Source: a virus. Taken from it: a stretch of DNA of 64,000 bases. The position numbers and the translations under genes were made by a program. Shown here one piece after another: positions 30,528-38,791 of the stretch. The notes under the pieces were generated by a model, which was given only the letters and a program-made list of their open reading frames with translations, did not search any database and was not told where the DNA came from. The first letter of the stretch is position 1. The number at the start of each line of letters is the position of its first letter. Location: positions 71,313 to 135,312 of the IMG/VR virus record IMGVR_UViG_3300002026_000025; one strand, given 5' to 3'.

Positions 30528-31976
30528 GTGAAATCTTCAAACATCCCATTTAACTTAGACATTTTAAAATTAACACCGGAAGTAACTAGTCGATTAAGAG
30601 CAATAACATCTTTAGATATATATACTTCTGCTACAAAAAATTTTCACCCAGATGGGTTGTATAGCACATTAACTTTCGGTACTGTAGGTAGCGAAGCTAG
30701 ATCTTCGAGATATGGATTTATTGATTTAAAGATATCGGTATTTCAACCTACTATTTATGGTGCATTACTAAAACTTAAAAGCTTTTATGGTGATATTATA
30801 TCCGGTAGAGAATTTGCATTATGGGATATTGATTCTAGTGATTTTATTAAATCAAATTCATTAGAAGGTCAAACTGGCTTTGAATTTTTTGTAGAACATT
30901 GGCAAAAAATAATATTCCCTAGTAGACCTAGTGTCACTCGTGAACAAAATATTGCCATGATAGAGAAATACAAAAAAGTAGCTTTAACAGATAAAGTTAT
31001 AGTAATGCCGGCGGGTTACAGAGATATGGAAATTGATGATACTGGAAGAGAGAGTTCAGATGAAATAAATAAACTGTATTATAAGCTAATTGCAATATCA
31101 AATACAATTAATGCATCTACTGTAAAAATATCACCAGAAGCGTACAATGGACAAAGGATATCTTTACAAAATACATTTGTAGAAATATATGAATATATAT
31201 TAGCTATCATTGAAGGTAAGAAGAATTTACTAATGGGTAAATGGGCTAGTAGAAAAGTTTTTAATGGTACTCGTAATGTAATTACGAGTATGGATACTAC
31301 CAGTCAATTTTTAAATGGTGCAAACAATGTTAGCATTAATGATACTGATGTTGGTATTTATCAATGCATGAAAGCAATGCTACCTGTTTCAAGATATCAA
31401 CTCAAAAATGGTTTCTTGTCCAGTGTATTTACTGGACCTAGTGCACCAGCTCTATTGACAAATAAAAAAACATTATTATCCGAAAGAGTAAATATTAAAA
31501 CTGATGTTTATAATGAATGGATGACTAATGAAGGTTTAGATAATTTTATCAGTACTTATAAAGAAACCAGTATTCGTGCAAATCCAATAATTATTGATGA
31601 TTGCTATTTGGGATTAGTTTATAAAGGTCCGGATGGTACATTTAAACTTATTCATGGTATAGATGAATTACCAGAAAATAGAAAAAAAGAAGATTGTATA
31701 CCAATATCAATGGTGTATTTATTTTATTGTAGTATTTATTATATTGCTAATAAATATCCTGGTTATATAACACGCTACCCAATCTTAGGTCCTGGTTCAA
31801 TTTATCCAAGTCACTTGCGTTTAAAATCTACAATCAAAACAGAAGTAAGAAAAGAATTAGGTGAAGATTGGGAACCTTTAAGTGAGGATAGAGTAGCGTA
31901 TGAATTCCCAACAAATACAGATTACTTTAATTCTTTTTCACCACATTCTTGTAGATTGTCAAAATTATCAGCTGAT
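30528..31976 (+). CDS. Virion RNA polymerase beta' catalytic subunit (phiKZ gp180-like), exon 1 (483 codons, ends ...LSAD)
   Basis: FHPDGLYS, GKWASRKVFNGTRNVIT, TRYP; ends at the AD of ADFDGD, with U at the 5' splice site. Confidence 0.9.
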
Positions 31977-33957
31977 CATCTTTAAATTAATATTTTGGAC
32001 ATTTTGAAAACATATAGTATGTGTAAACAAACTGAAAGTACTGTATGTTGAAAGAATATGTTGAGATAAATGGTTTTATTCGCATACCGTTGACAGCAGG
32101 TCGATACTGCATTTCTTTAGATGGAAAAGTCATCGGTGAAGACGGTAAGGAAATATTGAAAACCATAGATGAAGATGGAGATCTTCAAATATGGGGAGAA
32201 TTATACAATGGTTACCAGTTTTACAAAGTTGCTTTGTTATCGGTTATATGTTTTAAATCAATTAAGATTTCTTGGCAACAATGGGATAAACTCGGTGTTA
32301 TGTTTATTGATGGCAATAGGTTAAATATCCATCCCAGTAATTTAATATTAAAACTACCCAAGGGTGGTTTAGAGCACCCTAAACACAATGGGTTTTATTA
32401 TATACCAGGATGCAGTTATTACCTAATCGATAAATATGGGCGTGTGTACTCTAGGACCAGTGATAGAATGATAACTATATATAACCTTGAGTCAGGGTAT
32501 CGTTCCTACAGTATACGAACAGATTTAGGTGAAAAATATACACTTGGCAGACACCGTGCGTTAGCATTAGCTTTCTTAGAATACACTGCAAATGTAGATG
32601 ACCTCGATGTTAATCACATTAATGGAATTCGAGGAAGCGATGATTTATCTAATTTAGAATGGTGCACACGACAACACAATTGTAATCACGCATATGCTAA
32701 TAATTTACGAACAGATAATAAACACATATTAGTGAAAAATATTTATACTGATGAAATAATAGATTATTATAGTAGAGGTGATTGTTCAAGGCGAACAGGT
32801 GTATTAGATGTAACAGTTGATTATAGGACCAAAACAGATGGTCAGGTTGTTTTTGACGACTGTTTTTTATATAAGAAAAAAGATAGCTTATCTGATTGGA
32901 TTGATTTAGCTACAGCGATATCCACTAATGCATTCATTAGATTCAAAACACCAGTTAAAGTTAAAAATGTTTTAACGGGTGAAATAGTAGTCTACGAGAG
33001 CATAACTGCGGCAGCCGCCGCTACTGGAATTGAAAGGGGGACAATTGATCTCAGATTGGTTAAAAATGCAAATACAGATTACGTTTTTGGATACCAATTT
33101 AAATCAATTGAAGATAAAACAGATTGGCTAGATATTAAAAATTCTACATTGGTTAATTTAAGAACTGAAGTCAAAATTAAAGACATAAAAACTGGTACTA
33201 TTACAACTCATGATAGTATCAAAAGTGCGAGTATATTTACAAATATACCCAAAAATAGAATTGAATATATACTTAAGACTAACAATGAAAAAGCATATAT
33301 GGGTTATCAATTTAAATACTTTCTTGATTCAACTGAATGGCTTGACATAACCGATATAAACTACGGTTATAAAAAAATCAATGCTTCTAGAAAAGTCGAA
33401 TGTTCGGATACTTCCACAAACAGCATTAGAATATTCGATACATTAAGAGAAGCGGAGAGAGTAACTGGAGTTTCAGTTAGAACAATTAGAGAGCATTTAT
33501 CTAACCCGGAACATAAAAGCTATAAAAATCTGAAATTTTCAGAAAAACTAAATTAATTATATCGACTTGAAATTTATTTCATGGATTAATTTATTGCGAA
33601 TAAATCTTTTTATAAAGATATTAATTTATAAACAGGTCCTACTATTCAGTAATGGATAGATAGAATCCTTTTGAATTGCTGGAACCACTCGCTAGACTAA
33701 TATACTACAATAGCCACGAAAGTAGACTATGAAAGTTTGAAAAATATTAGGTAGAGTCAATCAGCCCCTAAGCTCCTCTATGTAGAAATACAGTGGAGAA
33801 AGATCAACGGCCATCCCGTAGCTGGGAGTAGGGAACAGTGTTCCCGAAGTGGAAGGCTTCCAATCTATTGGAAGAAGATATGGTCTGCTCCTGTGCGAGA
33901 GTACAGGCAGGTGTTGTAGCACACCGGGTTAGAGTAACGAACTAACCGGACAATAGG
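31977..33957 (+). mobile_element. Group I intron 1 (IA-like) carrying an HNH endonuclease gene
   Basis: Core elements: P AATTGCTGGAA 33674, Q AATCAGC 33759, R TCAACGGCCA ~33804, S AAGATATGGTC ~33875; terminal G at 33957; splicing restores the frame. Confidence 0.88.
32045..33556 (+). CDS. Intron-encoded HNH homing endonuclease with NUMOD-type DNA-binding repeats
   Basis: HRALALAF...VNHINGIRGSDDLSNLEWCT..N..HA; a degenerate earlier HNH-like unit (FIDGNRLNIHPSNL); four C-terminal repeats of type VKN..TGEI..Y.SI..AA..TG. Confidence 0.9.
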   Translation: MLKEYVEINGFIRIPLTAGRYCISLDGKVIGEDGKEILKTIDEDGDLQIWGELYNGYQFYKVALLSVICFKSIKISWQQWDKLGVMFIDGNRLNIHPSNLILKLPKGGLEHPKHNGFYYIPGCSYYLIDKYGRVYSRTSDRMITIYNLESGYRSYSIRTDLGEKYTLGRHRALALAFLEYTANVDDLDVNHINGIRGSDDLSNLEWCTRQHNCNHAYANNLRTDNKHILVKNIYTDEIIDYYSRGDCSRRTGVLDVTVDYRTKTDGQVVFDDCFLYKKKDSLSDWIDLATAISTNAFIRFKTPVKVKNVLTGEIVVYESITAAAAATGIERGTIDLRLVKNANTDYVFGYQFKSIEDKTDWLDIKNSTLVNLRTEVKIKDIKTGTITTHDSIKSASIFTNIPKNRIEYILKTNNEKAYMGYQFKYFLDSTEWLDITDINYGYKKINASRKVECSDTSTNSIRIFDTLREAERVTGVSVRTIREHLSNPEHKSYKNLKFSEKLN

Positions 33958-33966
33958 TTTGACGGT
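33958..33966 (+). CDS. vRNAP beta' exon 2: 9-nt micro-exon TTT GAC GGT (Phe-Asp-Gly)
   Basis: Preceded by G, ends in U; GACGGU pairs with GCCGUC (33977-33982) with a U.G at the splice site; supplies the missing FDG. Confidence 0.88.
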
Positions 33967-34304
33967 AAATATCACTGCCGTCACTAAAACTTTTCTAATT
34001 GCTGGAAACTCTTGAAGATAAAACAACTACTGCGAAGCGAAAGCTAAAGCGAACTCTGTAAGGAGTCTAGAGAATTTATTCTCTAAAAGTTTGAAAATGT
34101 TTTATTATAAGACAATCAGCAGCCAAGACCCTAAAGCCAAATGCCATGGGTAAGGTTCAACGACTATCCCGTAAGGGAGTACATCCAAGTGGATGGAAAT
34201 GGAAGTTACTATTTTTATAGTAAAGATATAGTCTGTTCTATATGGAGACATATAGCTGTATTAATTATACGGGTGGGGATTAACGAACCCTATTGAACAC
34301 AAAG
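33967..34304 (+). ncRNA. Group I intron 2 (338 nt, no ORF, IA-like)
   Basis: P1 as above; P AATTGCTGGAAA 33997, Q AATCAGCAG 34114, R GTTCAACGACTA 34155, P7.1/P7.2 hairpins, S AAGATATAGTC 34223; terminal G at 34304. Confidence 0.92.
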
Positions 34305-34463
34305 GATACAAGTTCATGCACTGTTGCTTATTCCGATGAGTCTATAAAGGAAGTAGATGATTTTTTTAAATCAAAAATTGCTTATATTGGGACAGACGGA
34401 AAATTTTCTGCAAATTTAGAAACCGATACTGTGAAATTCATACTACAAAATCTAACGAGTTAA
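34305..34463 (+). CDS. vRNAP beta' exon 3 (52 aa), not in the ORF track
   Basis: DTSSCTVAYSDESIKEVDDFFKSKIAYIGTDGKFSANLETDTVKFILQNLTS*; the spliced product is 538 aa with LSADFDGDT and stops 2 nt before the next gene. Confidence 0.9.
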   Translation, partial: DTSSCTVAYSDESIKEVDDFFKSKIAYIGTDGKFSANLETDTVKFILQNLTS

Positions 34464-34465
34464 CC

Positions 34466-37400
34466 ATGATTACATATCAATTATTTTATAGAAAATACGG
34501 GATTAGATTTGTTCAACAAATAATGACTCCGCCTATTTCAGATGTAATGTTATTAGATTTACCTATGAAATCTATTTATCATTATTTTCCAACAGATGGT
34601 GTTAACGATGGACCGCCTAGTGATGAATACTTGTTTAGAAATATAAAAAAGCCAATATTAATAAATAATGTTTTTGATGTAGGTTCTCAATTAGGGAGTC
34701 CAAGAAAACAAACAATTAATATTAATACAGCTGTTAGAGATTATTATAATCAAAACAGAAGAATGCGACCATTGAGAAATGTAGTTTTGGCCAGTAAGGA
34801 CCCAAATACTTTAATTGTTTGTAACTACTGTTTAATTAATAAATCGTACAAATATGTAAGAAGTTTTTATACCGAGTATTACAAATGGTATAATATTTTC
34901 TCCGCAGTAGTTAAAAATATTGCAGAGTTATCAGCTGAATCAAGTAACCATCATTTTATTTTAAGTGGTTCGCCTAAAATTATCCCAAGTTTAAATCAAC
35001 TCAACTTAGCTAGTGGCGCTGAAATGAGTACGGGTTTACTTAAAACATTTAATTCAAATGAAGCTTATTTATTATTAGAACTTTGGAAGTGGTTAAGTGA
35101 AAATAGGCAGAATAGCTTATTTGCTAAAATACCAAATAATAAAATAGATCTTGTAAATATTATCTATATTGAAACTGGTAAATGGTGTATTTTAAACTTA
35201 GGTGTTCTTAATAGTTTTAGAATGTCCGTAGAAGAAAAAAGTGATGATAAATTTATTATTGAATCTAAGATAACATTATCGCCAGAACAAATACAAAAAC
35301 GTTTGTTAAAGATGACCATGACAATCATGGAGTGTAGAACTATAACAACGAATGTCAGTGATGTGGTTGCAGATGAACCAAAGGAAATATCTGTAATAAC
35401 AGGTAATGCTATTGAAATTGATGATGAAATTCAAACTGATTCATTTGACAATGACAAAGAAATTGATGTAACTGAAATTAACAATTTTACCCCAATTGAC
35501 ACAGTATCACCTGAATCAGATATGCCTATAGATGAACAGTTGATAGTTTCGGATGATACTGAGTTTCTAGAAGAAGATCAGGAAATTATAAAACAAAGAA
35601 TTATTGATGAAGATGCACTTATTGACAAAGATCTGGCACAGTTAAATGATATTGCAAAAAAACAAGATGAAACTGAAGAGCAAGACATAAACACATTTAA
35701 AGATATTATCAATGAGCCAATACAAACATTGGAAAATGCAATACTCAAAAAATGTGATAAATTAGCAGATGATGGTTTATTGACTGCTGGTGAATACAGA
35801 AGATTTTCTAAACTAGCTAATTCATATAAACAAATACTCTCTCCTGACGATGTTACCCTATTATCCGAATTTATTGTTATTAAACCAGGAGATTTAAAAA
35901 TAACTGAATCATCTACAATGGTAGATAACACTGCAATCATCGATAAAACAATGTTGAAATCTAGTTTAATTGATTTTGATAGTAGATATATTAAAAACAT
36001 TTTAGCTAAAGATATTGCTAATGCAGTAATGTCTGTACAGAGAGCGGGTATTGCAGTTACAAATTACAAAGTGGAAAAAGTTGAAGATATTACTGGTGGC
36101 TTTGAAATACATACAGTTAAACTTACTCCAATTGAAGGAGCACCTTCTACTTTGAGATTTAAACTACCGTTAATTAATACAGATAGTACGTGGACTAGTT
36201 CAGACGTGAAATATTGTTTACGTAAACAGCGCGGTGACCTACCGATACGAAAGACAGCTTACAACAAAGTAGCACTCACTAGTTACTATGGCAAAACATT
36301 TATTAACCGAGCCAGAAAGAAAAATGCAAATTACAGCTATTGGTTACAAACTTTATTAATGCAAAAAGGTATTGACGATAACGATTTAGACATCACTGAT
36401 ATTGTACCTTCAAATGTATTTGATAATGCACTTAAATCACCTAAAGCTTATTCATCTATATCCATGGCATTTAAATCTTTTAAATGTAAAAATTTTACAT
36501 TTATGTTTGATAGGAAAGAAGTTTTATTAACTTATCCTGAAACAGTTTTAAAACATTTTGAGAAAAATGGTTCATTGGTTATTGGTTCTAATACATCAGG
36601 TGTTTATTTGATATTAGATAATAACAATTCTGTTTATATTACAGATAACTTGGAGTTAAAATTATTTGGTACAATTGAACAATTCTTAAATATTTCAACA
36701 CAAAACTCACCGGTGGAATATGCTGATATAAATGTATACGGTAAAGAAATCCCTATCGGGGTTATTTTGGGTTATAAAATTGGTCTGGATAAATTAATGG
36801 GGTTATTAAAAGCCGTACCAAGAAGAGTCAATGCTGGTAGTAGGTTAAATCTTGATAACAACGAATACGCAATAGCCTTCAGTGATGAGACATTAATTTT
36901 CAGTAAAGATGATAAATACGCCAGTATTATTCTATCTGGTTTTAATGAATATCATAGAGCTATTAAGATGTTCAGTGTATATAGTTTTGACAAAAGAGGT
37001 GTTTATCTTAACTTGCTAGATTCTGCTAACTTAGGTGTCAGGTACTTAAGAGAGATAGATTTAATGTACGATATGTTTATAGATGATATCACTAAAGATC
37101 TATTAATCGAAATGAAAGAACCTGTTACGTTTCAGGGTTTATTATTTCGCGCGTGTGAGATGTTAATGACCGACGAACATCCAGATGAACTCGATCCTAG
37201 ATTCATGCGTATCAAAGGTTACGAGAGAATTAGTGGTGCTGTCTACACTGAACTAGTTCAAGCTATTCGTGTACATAATGGTAAATTAGGCAAGTCTAAT
37301 AAACAAATTGAAATGAATCCATATGCAGTATGGAAGAGGGTTTCAGAAGATCCATCGAAATCACAAGTCAATGAAATCAATCCAATTAAAGCTTTGAAAG

Positions 37401-38791
37401 AATTGGAAGCAGTTACGTTATCTGGAACTGGTGGTAGGAATAAACGTAGCATGACAGCACCTACTAGAATTTATCATAAAAACGATATGGGTACAGTATC
37501 AGAATCGACAGTCGATTCTTCAGACGTAGCCATTAATGTGTTTATGAGCGCTGACCCACAGTTCAATTCTTTACGAGGTATATCTAAACCCTATGATTTT
37601 AAAACAACTGGTGTTACTGCATTATTATCAACATCTGCATTAACTGCTCCTGGGTCAGACAGAGACGATCCACGTCGTGTCAATTTCGTCGCTATACAAC
37701 AAGAGCACGTTATTGCTTGTGATGGTTATAAACAAGCTTCAGTTAGAACTGGATACGAACAAATAATTCCACAAAGGAGCGGTGATTTATTTGCAATGAC
37801 AGCTAAGAAACCTGGTATTGTTAAATCAATAACTGAAACAGGTATCGTCGTTGAATACGATGATAAAGAAACTGTTGGTTATGAATTAGGTACCAGATTT
37901 GGCAAAGCAGCCGGTTTAATTATTCCGCATTCAGTAGTAACACAATTAAAGGTAAATCAGAAATTTGTACCCGGAGATGCAATCTGCTATAATGAAGGGT
38001 TTTTCGAGCCAGACTTTTTTAATAAAAATAGAATTGTATTTAAGAATTCTACCACTGCTAAAGTTGCATTTTGGGAAAGTCATCAGACTTTAGATGATTC
38101 GTCTGCACTTAGTGCTAAGATGGCAGATAAGCTTATGACAAAAATAACTAAGATGAAAACCATTGTAGTTAGATTTGATCAAGTCATTAATAGATTAGTT
38201 AAAGTTGGTGATAAATTAATATCCGATAGTGCGTTATGCATTATTGAAGATTCTATTACTTCTACTAATAAACTATTTGACGAAAAAAATTTAGATACAT
38301 TAAAAATAGTAGGCGCACAAGCACCGAGGTCACATGTGGATGGCATTGTTGAAAAAGTAGAAGTATTTTATAATGGTGATAAAGAAGACATGTCTGCATC
38401 ACTATTGGAAATTGTCAACAGTGGAAATAAGTTACTTAAAAAACATGCAGATAGTTTAAATAGAAAACCGTTTACTGGTAGCGTTGACGGTGGATTTAGA
38501 ACTGAAAATGATCCATTAGGTATAGATTGTGCAGCTATTCGAATCTATATATCCACTAATGTACCTAGTTCTGTAGGTGACAAAATAGTGTTCTCTAATC
38601 AGTTAAAGAGTGTAACAGGTAGTATTTTAGATGGTGAATATATCACGGAAAACGGTGATGAAATAGACGCTTTATATGGATATAAAGGTGTGAGTGATCG
38701 AATAGTGTCGAGTCCGTATATTATAGGCACAACAACAACACTATTGAAAGTAATTGCAAAACAAGCAGTTAAGATATATAAAAGTAAGTGA
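34466..38791 (+). CDS. Virion RNA polymerase beta subunit, N-terminal/large part (phiKZ gp178-like)
   Basis: RKQRGDLPIRK, RIKGYER, GTGGR, SESTVDSSDV, DDPRRVNF, GDKIVFSNQLKS. Confidence 0.9.
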   Translation: MITYQLFYRKYGIRFVQQIMTPPISDVMLLDLPMKSIYHYFPTDGVNDGPPSDEYLFRNIKKPILINNVFDVGSQLGSPRKQTININTAVRDYYNQNRRMRPLRNVVLASKDPNTLIVCNYCLINKSYKYVRSFYTEYYKWYNIFSAVVKNIAELSAESSNHHFILSGSPKIIPSLNQLNLASGAEMSTGLLKTFNSNEAYLLLELWKWLSENRQNSLFAKIPNNKIDLVNIIYIETGKWCILNLGVLNSFRMSVEEKSDDKFIIESKITLSPEQIQKRLLKMTMTIMECRTITTNVSDVVADEPKEISVITGNAIEIDDEIQTDSFDNDKEIDVTEINNFTPIDTVSPESDMPIDEQLIVSDDTEFLEEDQEIIKQRIIDEDALIDKDLAQLNDIAKKQDETEEQDINTFKDIINEPIQTLENAILKKCDKLADDGLLTAGEYRRFSKLANSYKQILSPDDVTLLSEFIVIKPGDLKITESSTMVDNTAIIDKTMLKSSLIDFDSRYIKNILAKDIANAVMSVQRAGIAVTNYKVEKVEDITGGFEIHTVKLTPIEGAPSTLRFKLPLINTDSTWTSSDVKYCLRKQRGDLPIRKTAYNKVALTSYYGKTFINRARKKNANYSYWLQTLLMQKGIDDNDLDITDIVPSNVFDNALKSPKAYSSISMAFKSFKCKNFTFMFDRKEVLLTYPETVLKHFEKNGSLVIGSNTSGVYLILDNNNSVYITDNLELKLFGTIEQFLNISTQNSPVEYADINVYGKEIPIGVILGYKIGLDKLMGLLKAVPRRVNAGSRLNLDNNEYAIAFSDETLIFSKDDKYASIILSGFNEYHRAIKMFSVYSFDKRGVYLNLLDSANLGVRYLREIDLMYDMFIDDITKDLLIEMKEPVTFQGLLFRACEMLMTDEHPDELDPRFMRIKGYERISGAVYTELVQAIRVHNGKLGKSNKQIEMNPYAVWKRVSEDPSKSQVNEINPIKALKELEAVTLSGTGGRNKRSMTAPTRIYHKNDMGTVSESTVDSSDVAINVFMSADPQFNSLRGISKPYDFKTTGVTALLSTSALTAPGSDRDDPRRVNFVAIQQEHVIACDGYKQASVRTGYEQIIPQRSGDLFAMTAKKPGIVKSITETGIVVEYDDKETVGYELGTRFGKAAGLIIPHSVVTQLKVNQKFVPGDAICYNEGFFEPDFFNKNRIVFKNSTTAKVAFWESHQTLDDSSALSAKMADKLMTKITKMKTIVVRFDQVINRLVKVGDKLISDSALCIIEDSITSTNKLFDEKNLDTLKIVGAQAPRSHVDGIVEKVEVFYNGDKEDMSASLLEIVNSGNKLLKKHADSLNRKPFTGSVDGGFRTENDPLGIDCAAIRIYISTNVPSSVGDKIVFSNQLKSVTGSILDGEYITENGDEIDALYGYKGVSDRIVSSPYIIGTTTTLLKVIAKQAVKIYKSK

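Follow-up and report, generated by a model that had tools for sequence, protein, structure and literature searches.

Group I introns that carry genes for HNH endonucleases are already known from the RNA polymerase (RNAP) genes of phiKZ-type phages, as are short exons enclosed between tandem group I introns. For phiKZ itself, Mesyanzhinov et al. 2002 (cited in PMC10914365) predicted an intron containing gp179, and a small exon between tandem group I introns has also been reported for phage phiNIT1. A preference of mobile introns for active-site codons is stated in a review. Here we describe a virion RNAP gene of an uncultured giant phage (IMG/VR virus record IMGVR_UViG_3300002026_000025), in which the DNA coding for the catalytic, magnesium-binding motif ADFDGD appears to be divided by two group I introns with a micro-exon of nine nucleotides (nt) between them. 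The DNA analysed, referred to below as the window, is the last 64 kb (64,000 nt) of this 135-kb contig, the completeness of which is estimated at about 51%. It is highly probable, in our judgement, that two mobile group I introns inserted independently into a hotspot at this motif and are spliced out to give a normal three-exon messenger RNA (mRNA).

The interrupted gene encodes the beta'-N subunit of the virion RNAP, of the phiKZ gp180 type, as indicated by a PHROG profile, by tblastn and by the order of the neighbouring genes. The tblastn search with beta'-N returned 313 phage records, with identities of 41–46% for the records listed first. Exon 1 (30528–31976, plus strand; 483 codons, ending ...S-A-D) matches positions 1–484 of the 539 profile positions of phrog_2986 (E 1.8e-170), and exon 3 (34305–34463, plus strand; 52 codons and a stop, beginning D-T-S-S-C) matches positions 488–539 with its 52 residues (E 5e-11) and aligns without gaps. 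The gap in profile coverage between the two is exactly three positions. Three residues, F-D-G, which include the second Asp of ADFDGD, are supplied by the micro-exon TTTGACGGT (33958–33966, plus strand), recognised from its letters, from the profile gap and from alignment.

The boundaries of the three pieces can be read directly from the DNA. Exon 1 ends in GCT GAT at 31971–31976, after which its frame meets TAA at 31983–31985. The micro-exon is preceded by G33957 and has T33966 as its last base, and G34304 stands directly before GAT ACA (34305 onwards), which is in the frame of an open reading frame (ORF) of 56 amino acids (aa) at 34293–34463. Both splice junctions fall between codons (phase 0). 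At each 5' splice site a U is found in a U.G wobble (U31976.G33636 in intron 1, U33966.G33977 in intron 2), and both introns end in G (G33957 and G34304), as is typical of group I introns. The three-exon model had been put forward in a preliminary description of the locus, and every coordinate and letter given there proved correct in the sequence, as did the phase 0 junctions, the U before each 5' splice site and the terminal G of each intron.

The pattern G-TTYGAYGG-T occurs once on both strands of the 64 kb, at 33957–33966, with 0.35 occurrences expected per window from shuffled sequences. Because this single occurrence falls exactly in the narrow space separating the two ribozymes and exactly three profile positions are missing, chance is a poor explanation. 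An alternative cut for intron 2 also yields D-G-D-T; the intron would then follow a G and end in A, and since this breaks the U and G rules for splice sites, the boundaries of the preliminary description are preferred. No other pair of boundaries exists that restores ADFDGD with U and G at the splice sites.

Joined together, the three pieces give a protein of 538 aa that aligns without gaps across ADFDGD with the intronless homologues of FLC9, RP31 and DT01. The closest relative found (locus L008) is also intronless and also encodes 538 aa, with 78% amino acid and 75% DNA identity and no gap against the predicted spliced product. The codons GAT and GGT of the window correspond to GAC and GGA in L008, so that the window possesses the U needed at both group I 5' splice sites. 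As a separate observation, the end of exon 1 (31966–31975) is a perfect palindrome of 10 base pairs (bp), ATCAGCTGAT; a single base separates it from the 5' splice site, and L008 lacks it. Consistent with the preliminary description, which had named an intact second copy of the subunit gene as a finding that would speak against the model, no second beta'-N copy and no contiguous 15-mer coding for DFDGD were found in the 135-kb contig, which is about 51% complete.

Both intervening sequences had been called group I introns, and the Rfam model RF00028, which has a gathering score of 50 bits, gave two plus-strand matches, of 85.4 and 49.6 bits. The stronger match corresponds to intron 2 (33967–34304, plus strand; 338 nt, no ORF, terminal G at 34304). 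It extends from 33934 to 34255, covers the full length of the model (1–253) and lies above the cut-off. The guide region (33970–33983, plus strand) contains GCCGUCA at 33977–33983, which can pair with UGACGGU (33960–33966) to form a P1 helix of 7 bp with the U33966.G33977 wobble at the splice site, and UAUC at 33970–33973, which can pair with GAUA (34305–34308) as P10. An unconstrained minimum free energy fold recovered P1, P4–P6, P7.1, P7.2, P8 and P9–P9.2, with a z-score of −3.9. Two additional hairpins, situated between P7 and P3', suggest that intron 2 belongs to subgroup IA2. Over 51 nt, its core shares 96% identity with a group I intron of phage PhiPA3 (L007 3808–4113, 71.7 bits), which lies between genes 085 and 084 and not in an RNAP gene.

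Nearly all of the micro-exon is taken up by these pairings. Its positions 3–9 are used by P1 of intron 2, where the GACGGU pairing suggested earlier was confirmed and extended to the seven pairs of UGACGGU with GCCGUCA, and positions 1–2 (or 1–3) are left for P10 of intron 1, with no overlap between the two sets. The further suggestion that UUU can form this P10 held only in part: the pairing is possible, and it is weak, consisting of two or three A-U or G-U pairs, and no better than chance. P10 consists of two or three weak pairs in every member of the intron 1 family. The 3' strand of the last hairpin of intron 1, CUAACC, has an alternative partner in GG|UUUG, which spans the 3' splice site (33943–33961), giving a possible competing fold, and the Rfam alignment took this pairing as the 'P1' of intron 2.

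Intron 1 (31977–33957, plus strand; 1981 nt, terminal G at 33957) was recognised from its Rfam core, from a family alignment and from the insertion site that it shares with other introns. Its match to RF00028 (33620–33907, plus strand, 49.6 bits, E 5.7e-11) was obtained at a permissive setting and falls just under the cut-off. Twelve related introns were aligned, and RNAalifold predicted 43 consensus pairs, 32 of them with compensatory changes across the twelve; intron 1 keeps 41 of the 43. Its P7 strands, GGCCA and UGGUC, are unusual yet still pair.

The guide of intron 1 was identified by comparison with related introns, in which GUCC is conserved just 5' of the P2 hairpin; the same letters are found there in the window, phiKZ, Vibrio phage Yong XC31, L017, L055 and L059. 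In the window, the guide GGUC (33635–33638, plus strand) would pair with G31974, A31975, U31976 (the U.G wobble) and the first intron base, C31977, giving a P1 of 4 bp. The corresponding P1 has 4 pairs in phiKZ (exon end GGAU, guide GUCC) and 6 perfect pairs in Yong XC31 (exon end GCGGAU, guide GUCCGC), the intron of which sits at the same AD|FDGD site. The P2 hairpin (33642–33659, plus strand; 6 bp, loop AGUAAU) covaries in phiKZ, Yong XC31, L055, L059, L030, L069, L092 and a third intron of the same contig described below, and in the window, phiKZ, Yong XC31, L017, L055 and L059 its loop is either AGUAAU or CGAAAU.

Other candidates for this guide were considered and set aside. The initial 70 nt of the intron contained none, and the best results of scans over the whole intron, which fell within the ORF or the core, resembled chance matches. 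The pairing GCUGA:UCAGU (33646–33650, from RNAduplex) would place the splice-site U opposite a U and was dropped in favour of the conserved GUCC, and the hairpin at 33642–33659 was rejected as a mimic of P1, because its phiKZ equivalent lacks a wobble at the corresponding position.

Cofolding of the 5' segment of intron 1 with the segment that follows its ORF gave a long-range helix of 14 bp (31983–31996 with 33615–33628, both plus strand), with a z-score of −3.4 against shuffled sequences; equivalent helices scored z −4.7 in phiKZ and z −3.0 in Yong XC31. Roughly the first 20 bases of the intron pair with the stretch just before the guide, which places the endonuclease gene in the loop of P1, closed by this helix. 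The gene (32045–33556, plus strand) encodes 503 aa and matches phrog_59 (8.9e-38). As expected of a homing endonuclease, an HNH domain (PF13392 HNH_3, 35.5 bits, 7.7e-9, cut-off 24.8) and a NUMOD module (PF07453 NUMOD1, 57.3 bits, 1.6e-15, cut-off 22.8) are encoded inside the intron. The protein is 32% identical to phiKZ gp179 over 357 aa (E 2e-60), and the two share the same first residues at the start.

The same site is occupied in phiKZ. Gene 180 of that phage has a group I intron (92.2 bits) at exactly the position of intron 1 (GAT|TTY, AD|FDGD): the annotated end of the gene reads ...GAD, an in-frame stop lies at the start of the intron, gp179 is contained inside, and FDGDTVSF follows the terminal G. 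Intron 1 is the counterpart of this phiKZ intron, the predicted one with gp179, and the statement in the preliminary description that group I introns occur in RNAP genes of phiKZ-like phages was correct.

Among isolated phages, the region is in one piece in 249 of 288 matching records and interrupted in 39, five of which were examined, among them phiKZ and Yong XC31, both cut at AD|FDGD. The gene is cut at ADFD|GD in pir03 and at ADFDG|D, the site of intron 2, in Aeromonas phage PS2. The 264-nt intervening sequence of PS2 (L012 3723–3986) follows a U, ends in G and shows a CGGU:GCCG pairing of 4 bp, and had no Rfam match at E 0.01; it may represent a small or divergent type of intron. In Photobacterium phage PDCC-1 (L015 3700–5420), exon 1 ends in GGD and the downstream exon would read VVDNKQ..., with no piece coding for FDG found in between; the intron contains a single ribozyme core (38.7 bits) and an ORF of 416 aa, which suggests either unusual boundaries or a degenerate motif. 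As had been anticipated, annotation truncates such genes: in the records of phiKZ, PS2, Yong XC31 and pir03 the annotated gene stops at the motif or shortly beyond it. Near and distant DNA searches among isolated phages gave no match covering the junction of intron 1, micro-exon and intron 2, and the only similarities were short ones to the cores, in PhiPA3, phiKZ-like phages, Aeromonas, Enterococcus and Staphylococcus phages and 201phi2-1.

A survey of IMG/VR covered the best 80 of 328 relatives. The motif is uninterrupted in 66 of these, as D[FYW]DGD in 63 and, in the metal-binding loop of three (L031, L068 and L091), as DHDGD, and the region is interrupted, within or next to the motif, in the remaining 14. 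Nine of the 14 are cut at AD|F, among them L029, where the sequence breaks off upstream of the 3' part; in L066 and L022 the cut falls inside the Phe codon, after its first and second base, respectively. Rfam was run on five of the interrupted loci. Twin introns are present in three, with a micro-exon of 12 nt (FDGD) in L017 and of 6 nt (FD) in both L055 and L059, and each of the three has two adjacent Rfam cores (32.9 and 79.3 bits in L017, 76.5 and 63.9 in L055, 78.1 and 79.9 in L059). Together with the window, pir03 and PS2, six different junctions are found within about 15 nt of one motif.

In all four twin-intron genomes, the window included, the micro-exon encodes exactly the residues that are missing, which argues for selection for its inclusion. 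The guide of the second intron likewise fits its own micro-exon in four out of four (UGACGGU:GCCGUCA in the window, GGAGAU:GUCUCC in L017 and CGAU:GUCG in both L055 and L059), so that guide and site covary. The endonuclease gene is more variable. The first intron of L017, otherwise intact, holds only a remnant of 56 codons (L017 7531–7698), which over 45 aa shares 49% identity with the beginning of the window ORF; this is the usual decay of a homing element, and the first introns of L055 and L059 have no endonuclease gene. The two intron cores of the window are 57% identical to each other, no closer than either is to the introns of other phages, which argues that they did not arise by a recent duplication. 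Further group I introns, of 55–90 bits, were noted 4–5 kb downstream in L066 (11290–11593), L059 (12556–12861), L055 (11909–12198) and L022 (12143–12552), presumably in the adjacent beta (gp178-type) gene.

We propose that intron 1 (AD|FDGD) and intron 2 (FDG|D) represent separate invasions, 9 nt apart, of the highly conserved DNA coding for the metal-binding motif ADFDGD, the second by an ORF-less element that would be unrelated in detail to the first and of the same structural type. Intron 1 would select GAU|C through GGUC and the 14-bp helix that closes its loop, and intron 2 would select UGACGGU through GCCGUCA. Both ribozymes are predicted to be active and both introns to be spliced. The two cores presumably cannot dock on 9 nt together, so that the splicing reactions would be successive; the introns would be excised independently, and either order would leave a normal substrate for the other. 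The product would be an mRNA of exon 1, the 9-nt micro-exon and exon 3, translated into the normal 538-aa subunit, and unspliced RNA would give a protein that stops three codons after AD. On the best reading, inclusion of the exon is required for function.

The endonuclease would be expected to target intron-free motif DNA, for which the intronless allele of L008 offers a candidate. Homing copies flanking exon sequence along with the intron. Because intron 2 lies 9 nt from a homing intron, it should be carried along with intron 1 by co-conversion, which would explain the persistence of an element that has no endonuclease of its own. A more far-reaching version, which we regard as possible and put forward only tentatively, is that the ADFDGD-coding DNA serves as a landing pad with several insertion sites, on which the exon has been squeezed to the minimum that two ribozymes can share (2 nt for P10 and 7 nt for P1; 6 nt in relatives), with splicing strictly sequential and the introns forming one composite mobile unit driven by one endonuclease.

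Several points weigh against functional splicing at this locus. No RNA run was found among the listed sequencing runs that hold the stretch, so that splicing is inferred. The window belongs to a metagenome contig of about 51% completeness, and a defective genome is conceivable. Splicing of T4 introns reportedly needs translation. In this light a phage nucleus, should this phage form one, would be a weak point of the proposal, as transcription is described as separated from translation there (PMC12908238). A long-read transcriptome of phiKZ gave, under the conditions of that study, no evidence that the predicted phiKZ introns are spliced, that of gp179 included (PMC10914365). Intron 1 has an Rfam score marginally below the cut-off, two of its 43 family pairs are broken, at the nearly invariant P4/P6 junction (GCCCC against GCAGC in the family), and the exon part of its P1 is only 3 bp (GAU:GUC) with a C/U mismatch at −4, where phiKZ has a G and the U of the window weakens the helix. 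Contigs of three DNA runs contained no intron-free allele with the exact junctions, which has no bearing on expression, and the joints that were found in these runs come from other introns or organisms sharing core sequence.

The same weaknesses of intron 1, and the unseen splicing of its phiKZ counterpart, would be accounted for if the locus were decaying, with one intron, most likely intron 1, no longer able to splice and the gene a pseudogene in a defective or dead-end genome. We consider this very improbable. All frames are intact, those of exon 1, the micro-exon and exon 3 as well as the 503-aa endonuclease; the U is kept at both splice sites, as are all but two of the family pairs. The weak combination of exon and guide letters, GCUGAU with GUCC, is shared by L055 and L059, and the contig offers no second copy of the subunit gene. 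Moreover, the stretch is present at about 10–14x word depth in two runs of one study, which are possibly the source of the contig and so not independent of it.

It had also been proposed that the order or fidelity of splicing could gate the production of infectious virions, in that skipping of the micro-exon, or an enforced order of excision, would yield an in-frame product lacking FDG and with it regulate the amount of active virion polymerase. The arithmetic of this proposal is right, as both introns are in phase 0 and skipping would remove FDG in frame. Exon skipping by tandem group I introns is moreover described for Twort orf142 (23-nt exon) and Coxiella 23S rRNA (34-nt exon) (PMC10136302). 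A gene of phage SIOphi is likewise reported to skip an internal exon, this being a terminase gene with skipping as the dominant variant according to the results text, and a polymerase gene with more than 47.2% of transcripts skipped according to the discussion text (PMC11878797). Against a gating role, the guides of the two introns differ (GUCC and GCCGUCA), and the end of exon 1, GCUGAU, does not fit the guide of intron 2. Neither feature of the Twort orf142 type, two highly similar introns or shared splice-site recognition, was found in the window; its cores are only 57% identical, whereas the Twort pair is described as highly similar, and an engineering study associates such conditions with exon inclusion, reporting that it is selected by differentiated splice-site recognition elements (PMC10136302). 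The micro-exons restore the missing residues in all four twin-intron genomes, and the intronless L008 and the 66 relatives with an uninterrupted motif do without such a device. A gating function is accordingly unsupported and, in our view, very improbable, and low-level skipping as a by-product is possible.

The last alternative, that nothing is spliced and that separate genes encode a shortened beta'-N, a free-standing endonuclease and a protein of 56 aa, the Rfam matches being relics, may draw on a possible TTG start of the 56-aa ORF at 34293 and on public records that annotate the homologues as separate pieces, and it can practically be dismissed, as the subunit would lose FDG and hence its second catalytic Asp, the FDG 9-mer lies exactly between a terminal G and a guide-paired U, and whole ribozyme structures are conserved with covariation.

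The surroundings of the locus are those of other phages of this kind. Before beta'-N lies a minus-strand neighbour, a gp181-like tail/lysin gene of 3343 aa, and the plus-strand frames follow in the order 483-codon frame, 503-aa ORF, 56-aa ORF and a 1441-aa gene. The latter (34466–38791, plus strand) is the uninterrupted gene of the virion RNAP beta subunit, of the phiKZ gp178 type (phrog_3148, 1572.6 bits). Gene order around beta'-N is the same as in FLC9, RP31, DT01 and phiKZ. A third group I intron was found in the same contig, on the minus strand (G000:C1:18368–18664, locus L004 1501–1797; 103.5 bits), with a 472-aa HNH-type ORF 5' of its core and with a GGUC guide, P2 hairpin and 3' end like those of intron 1. 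A 5' splice site for it at a GAU|C was considered and dropped, all three upstream frames being short (4–18 codons).

If the proposed arrangement is correct, standard annotation truncates the essential beta'-N gene at AD, as in phiKZ gene 180 and several other records, and since standard pipelines cannot see exons of 6–12 nt, the catalytic subunits of jumbo-phage polymerases would be systematically mis-called. A natural exon of 9 nt (6 and 12 nt in relatives) between two different ribozymes could serve as a test bed for the minimal needs of P1 and P10 in an exon, and for interference, cooperation or obligatory order between neighbouring ribozymes. Six junctions within about 15 nt, together with full, decayed and absent endonuclease genes, point to repeated homing into one active-site sequence. 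The same kind of element is reported to act as a weapon between co-infecting phages in PhiPA3 (PMC11620839).

Literature searches found neither twin introns inside ADFDGD nor so short a phage exon, and cases may be contained in the supplementary intron tables of PMC11878797 and PMC12880540. No paper was found that combines 'DFDGD' with 'group I intron', and searches for phage micro-exons, short exons and tandem introns found only the precedents from Twort, Coxiella and Bastillevirinae. Among the titles listed for introns and RNA polymerase in Goslar, none concerned a micro-exon of this kind.

Of the known systems, phiKZ resembles the window in having the same gene with the same neighbours (gp181-like, gp180 and gp178-like), the same insertion point and a homologous endonuclease; in both, the P1 loop holds the ORF, 5' of the core, and the two introns agree in guide (GUCC), P2 hairpin and 3' end. 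It differs in having a single intron, with FDGD contiguous with the downstream exon, whereas in the window another intron follows after 9 nt. PhiPA3 gp210 is also comparable, being reported as an HNH nicking endonuclease of a group I intron in a virion RNAP gene, at conserved Asp codons; the gene there is that of a beta subunit (gp211/209, gp178 type), with a single intron (PMC11620839). For the gp210 enzyme, the nearest experimentally tested case, nicking of phiKZ DNA and a benefit in competition have been demonstrated (PMC11620839); for the enzyme of the window, comparable activities would be predictions.

Tandem group I introns around a very short exon are likewise reported for introns 2 and 3 of Twort orf142, with an exon of 23 nt, and for Coxiella 23S rRNA, with one of 34 nt (PMC10136302). 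Unlike in these cases, the exon of the window is 9 nt long (6 or 12 nt in relatives) and lies inside a catalytic motif, and its introns are dissimilar (57% identity) and have different guides. Exon skipping, documented for Twort and Coxiella (PMC10136302), is hypothetical for the window. Other phage genes with two or three group I introns have been described, in one of which a small exon was seen only through reads of complementary DNA; these are different genes. Placozoan cox1, as reported, offers a parallel in its micro-exon of 1 nt, which arose from a second group I insertion beside the first and restores a conserved codon; unlike the window, it is organellar, has group IB introns and is supported by RNA sequencing (PMC5436844). 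Set beside these systems, the arrangement in the window appears to be a real and unusually compact variant of a known selfish element.

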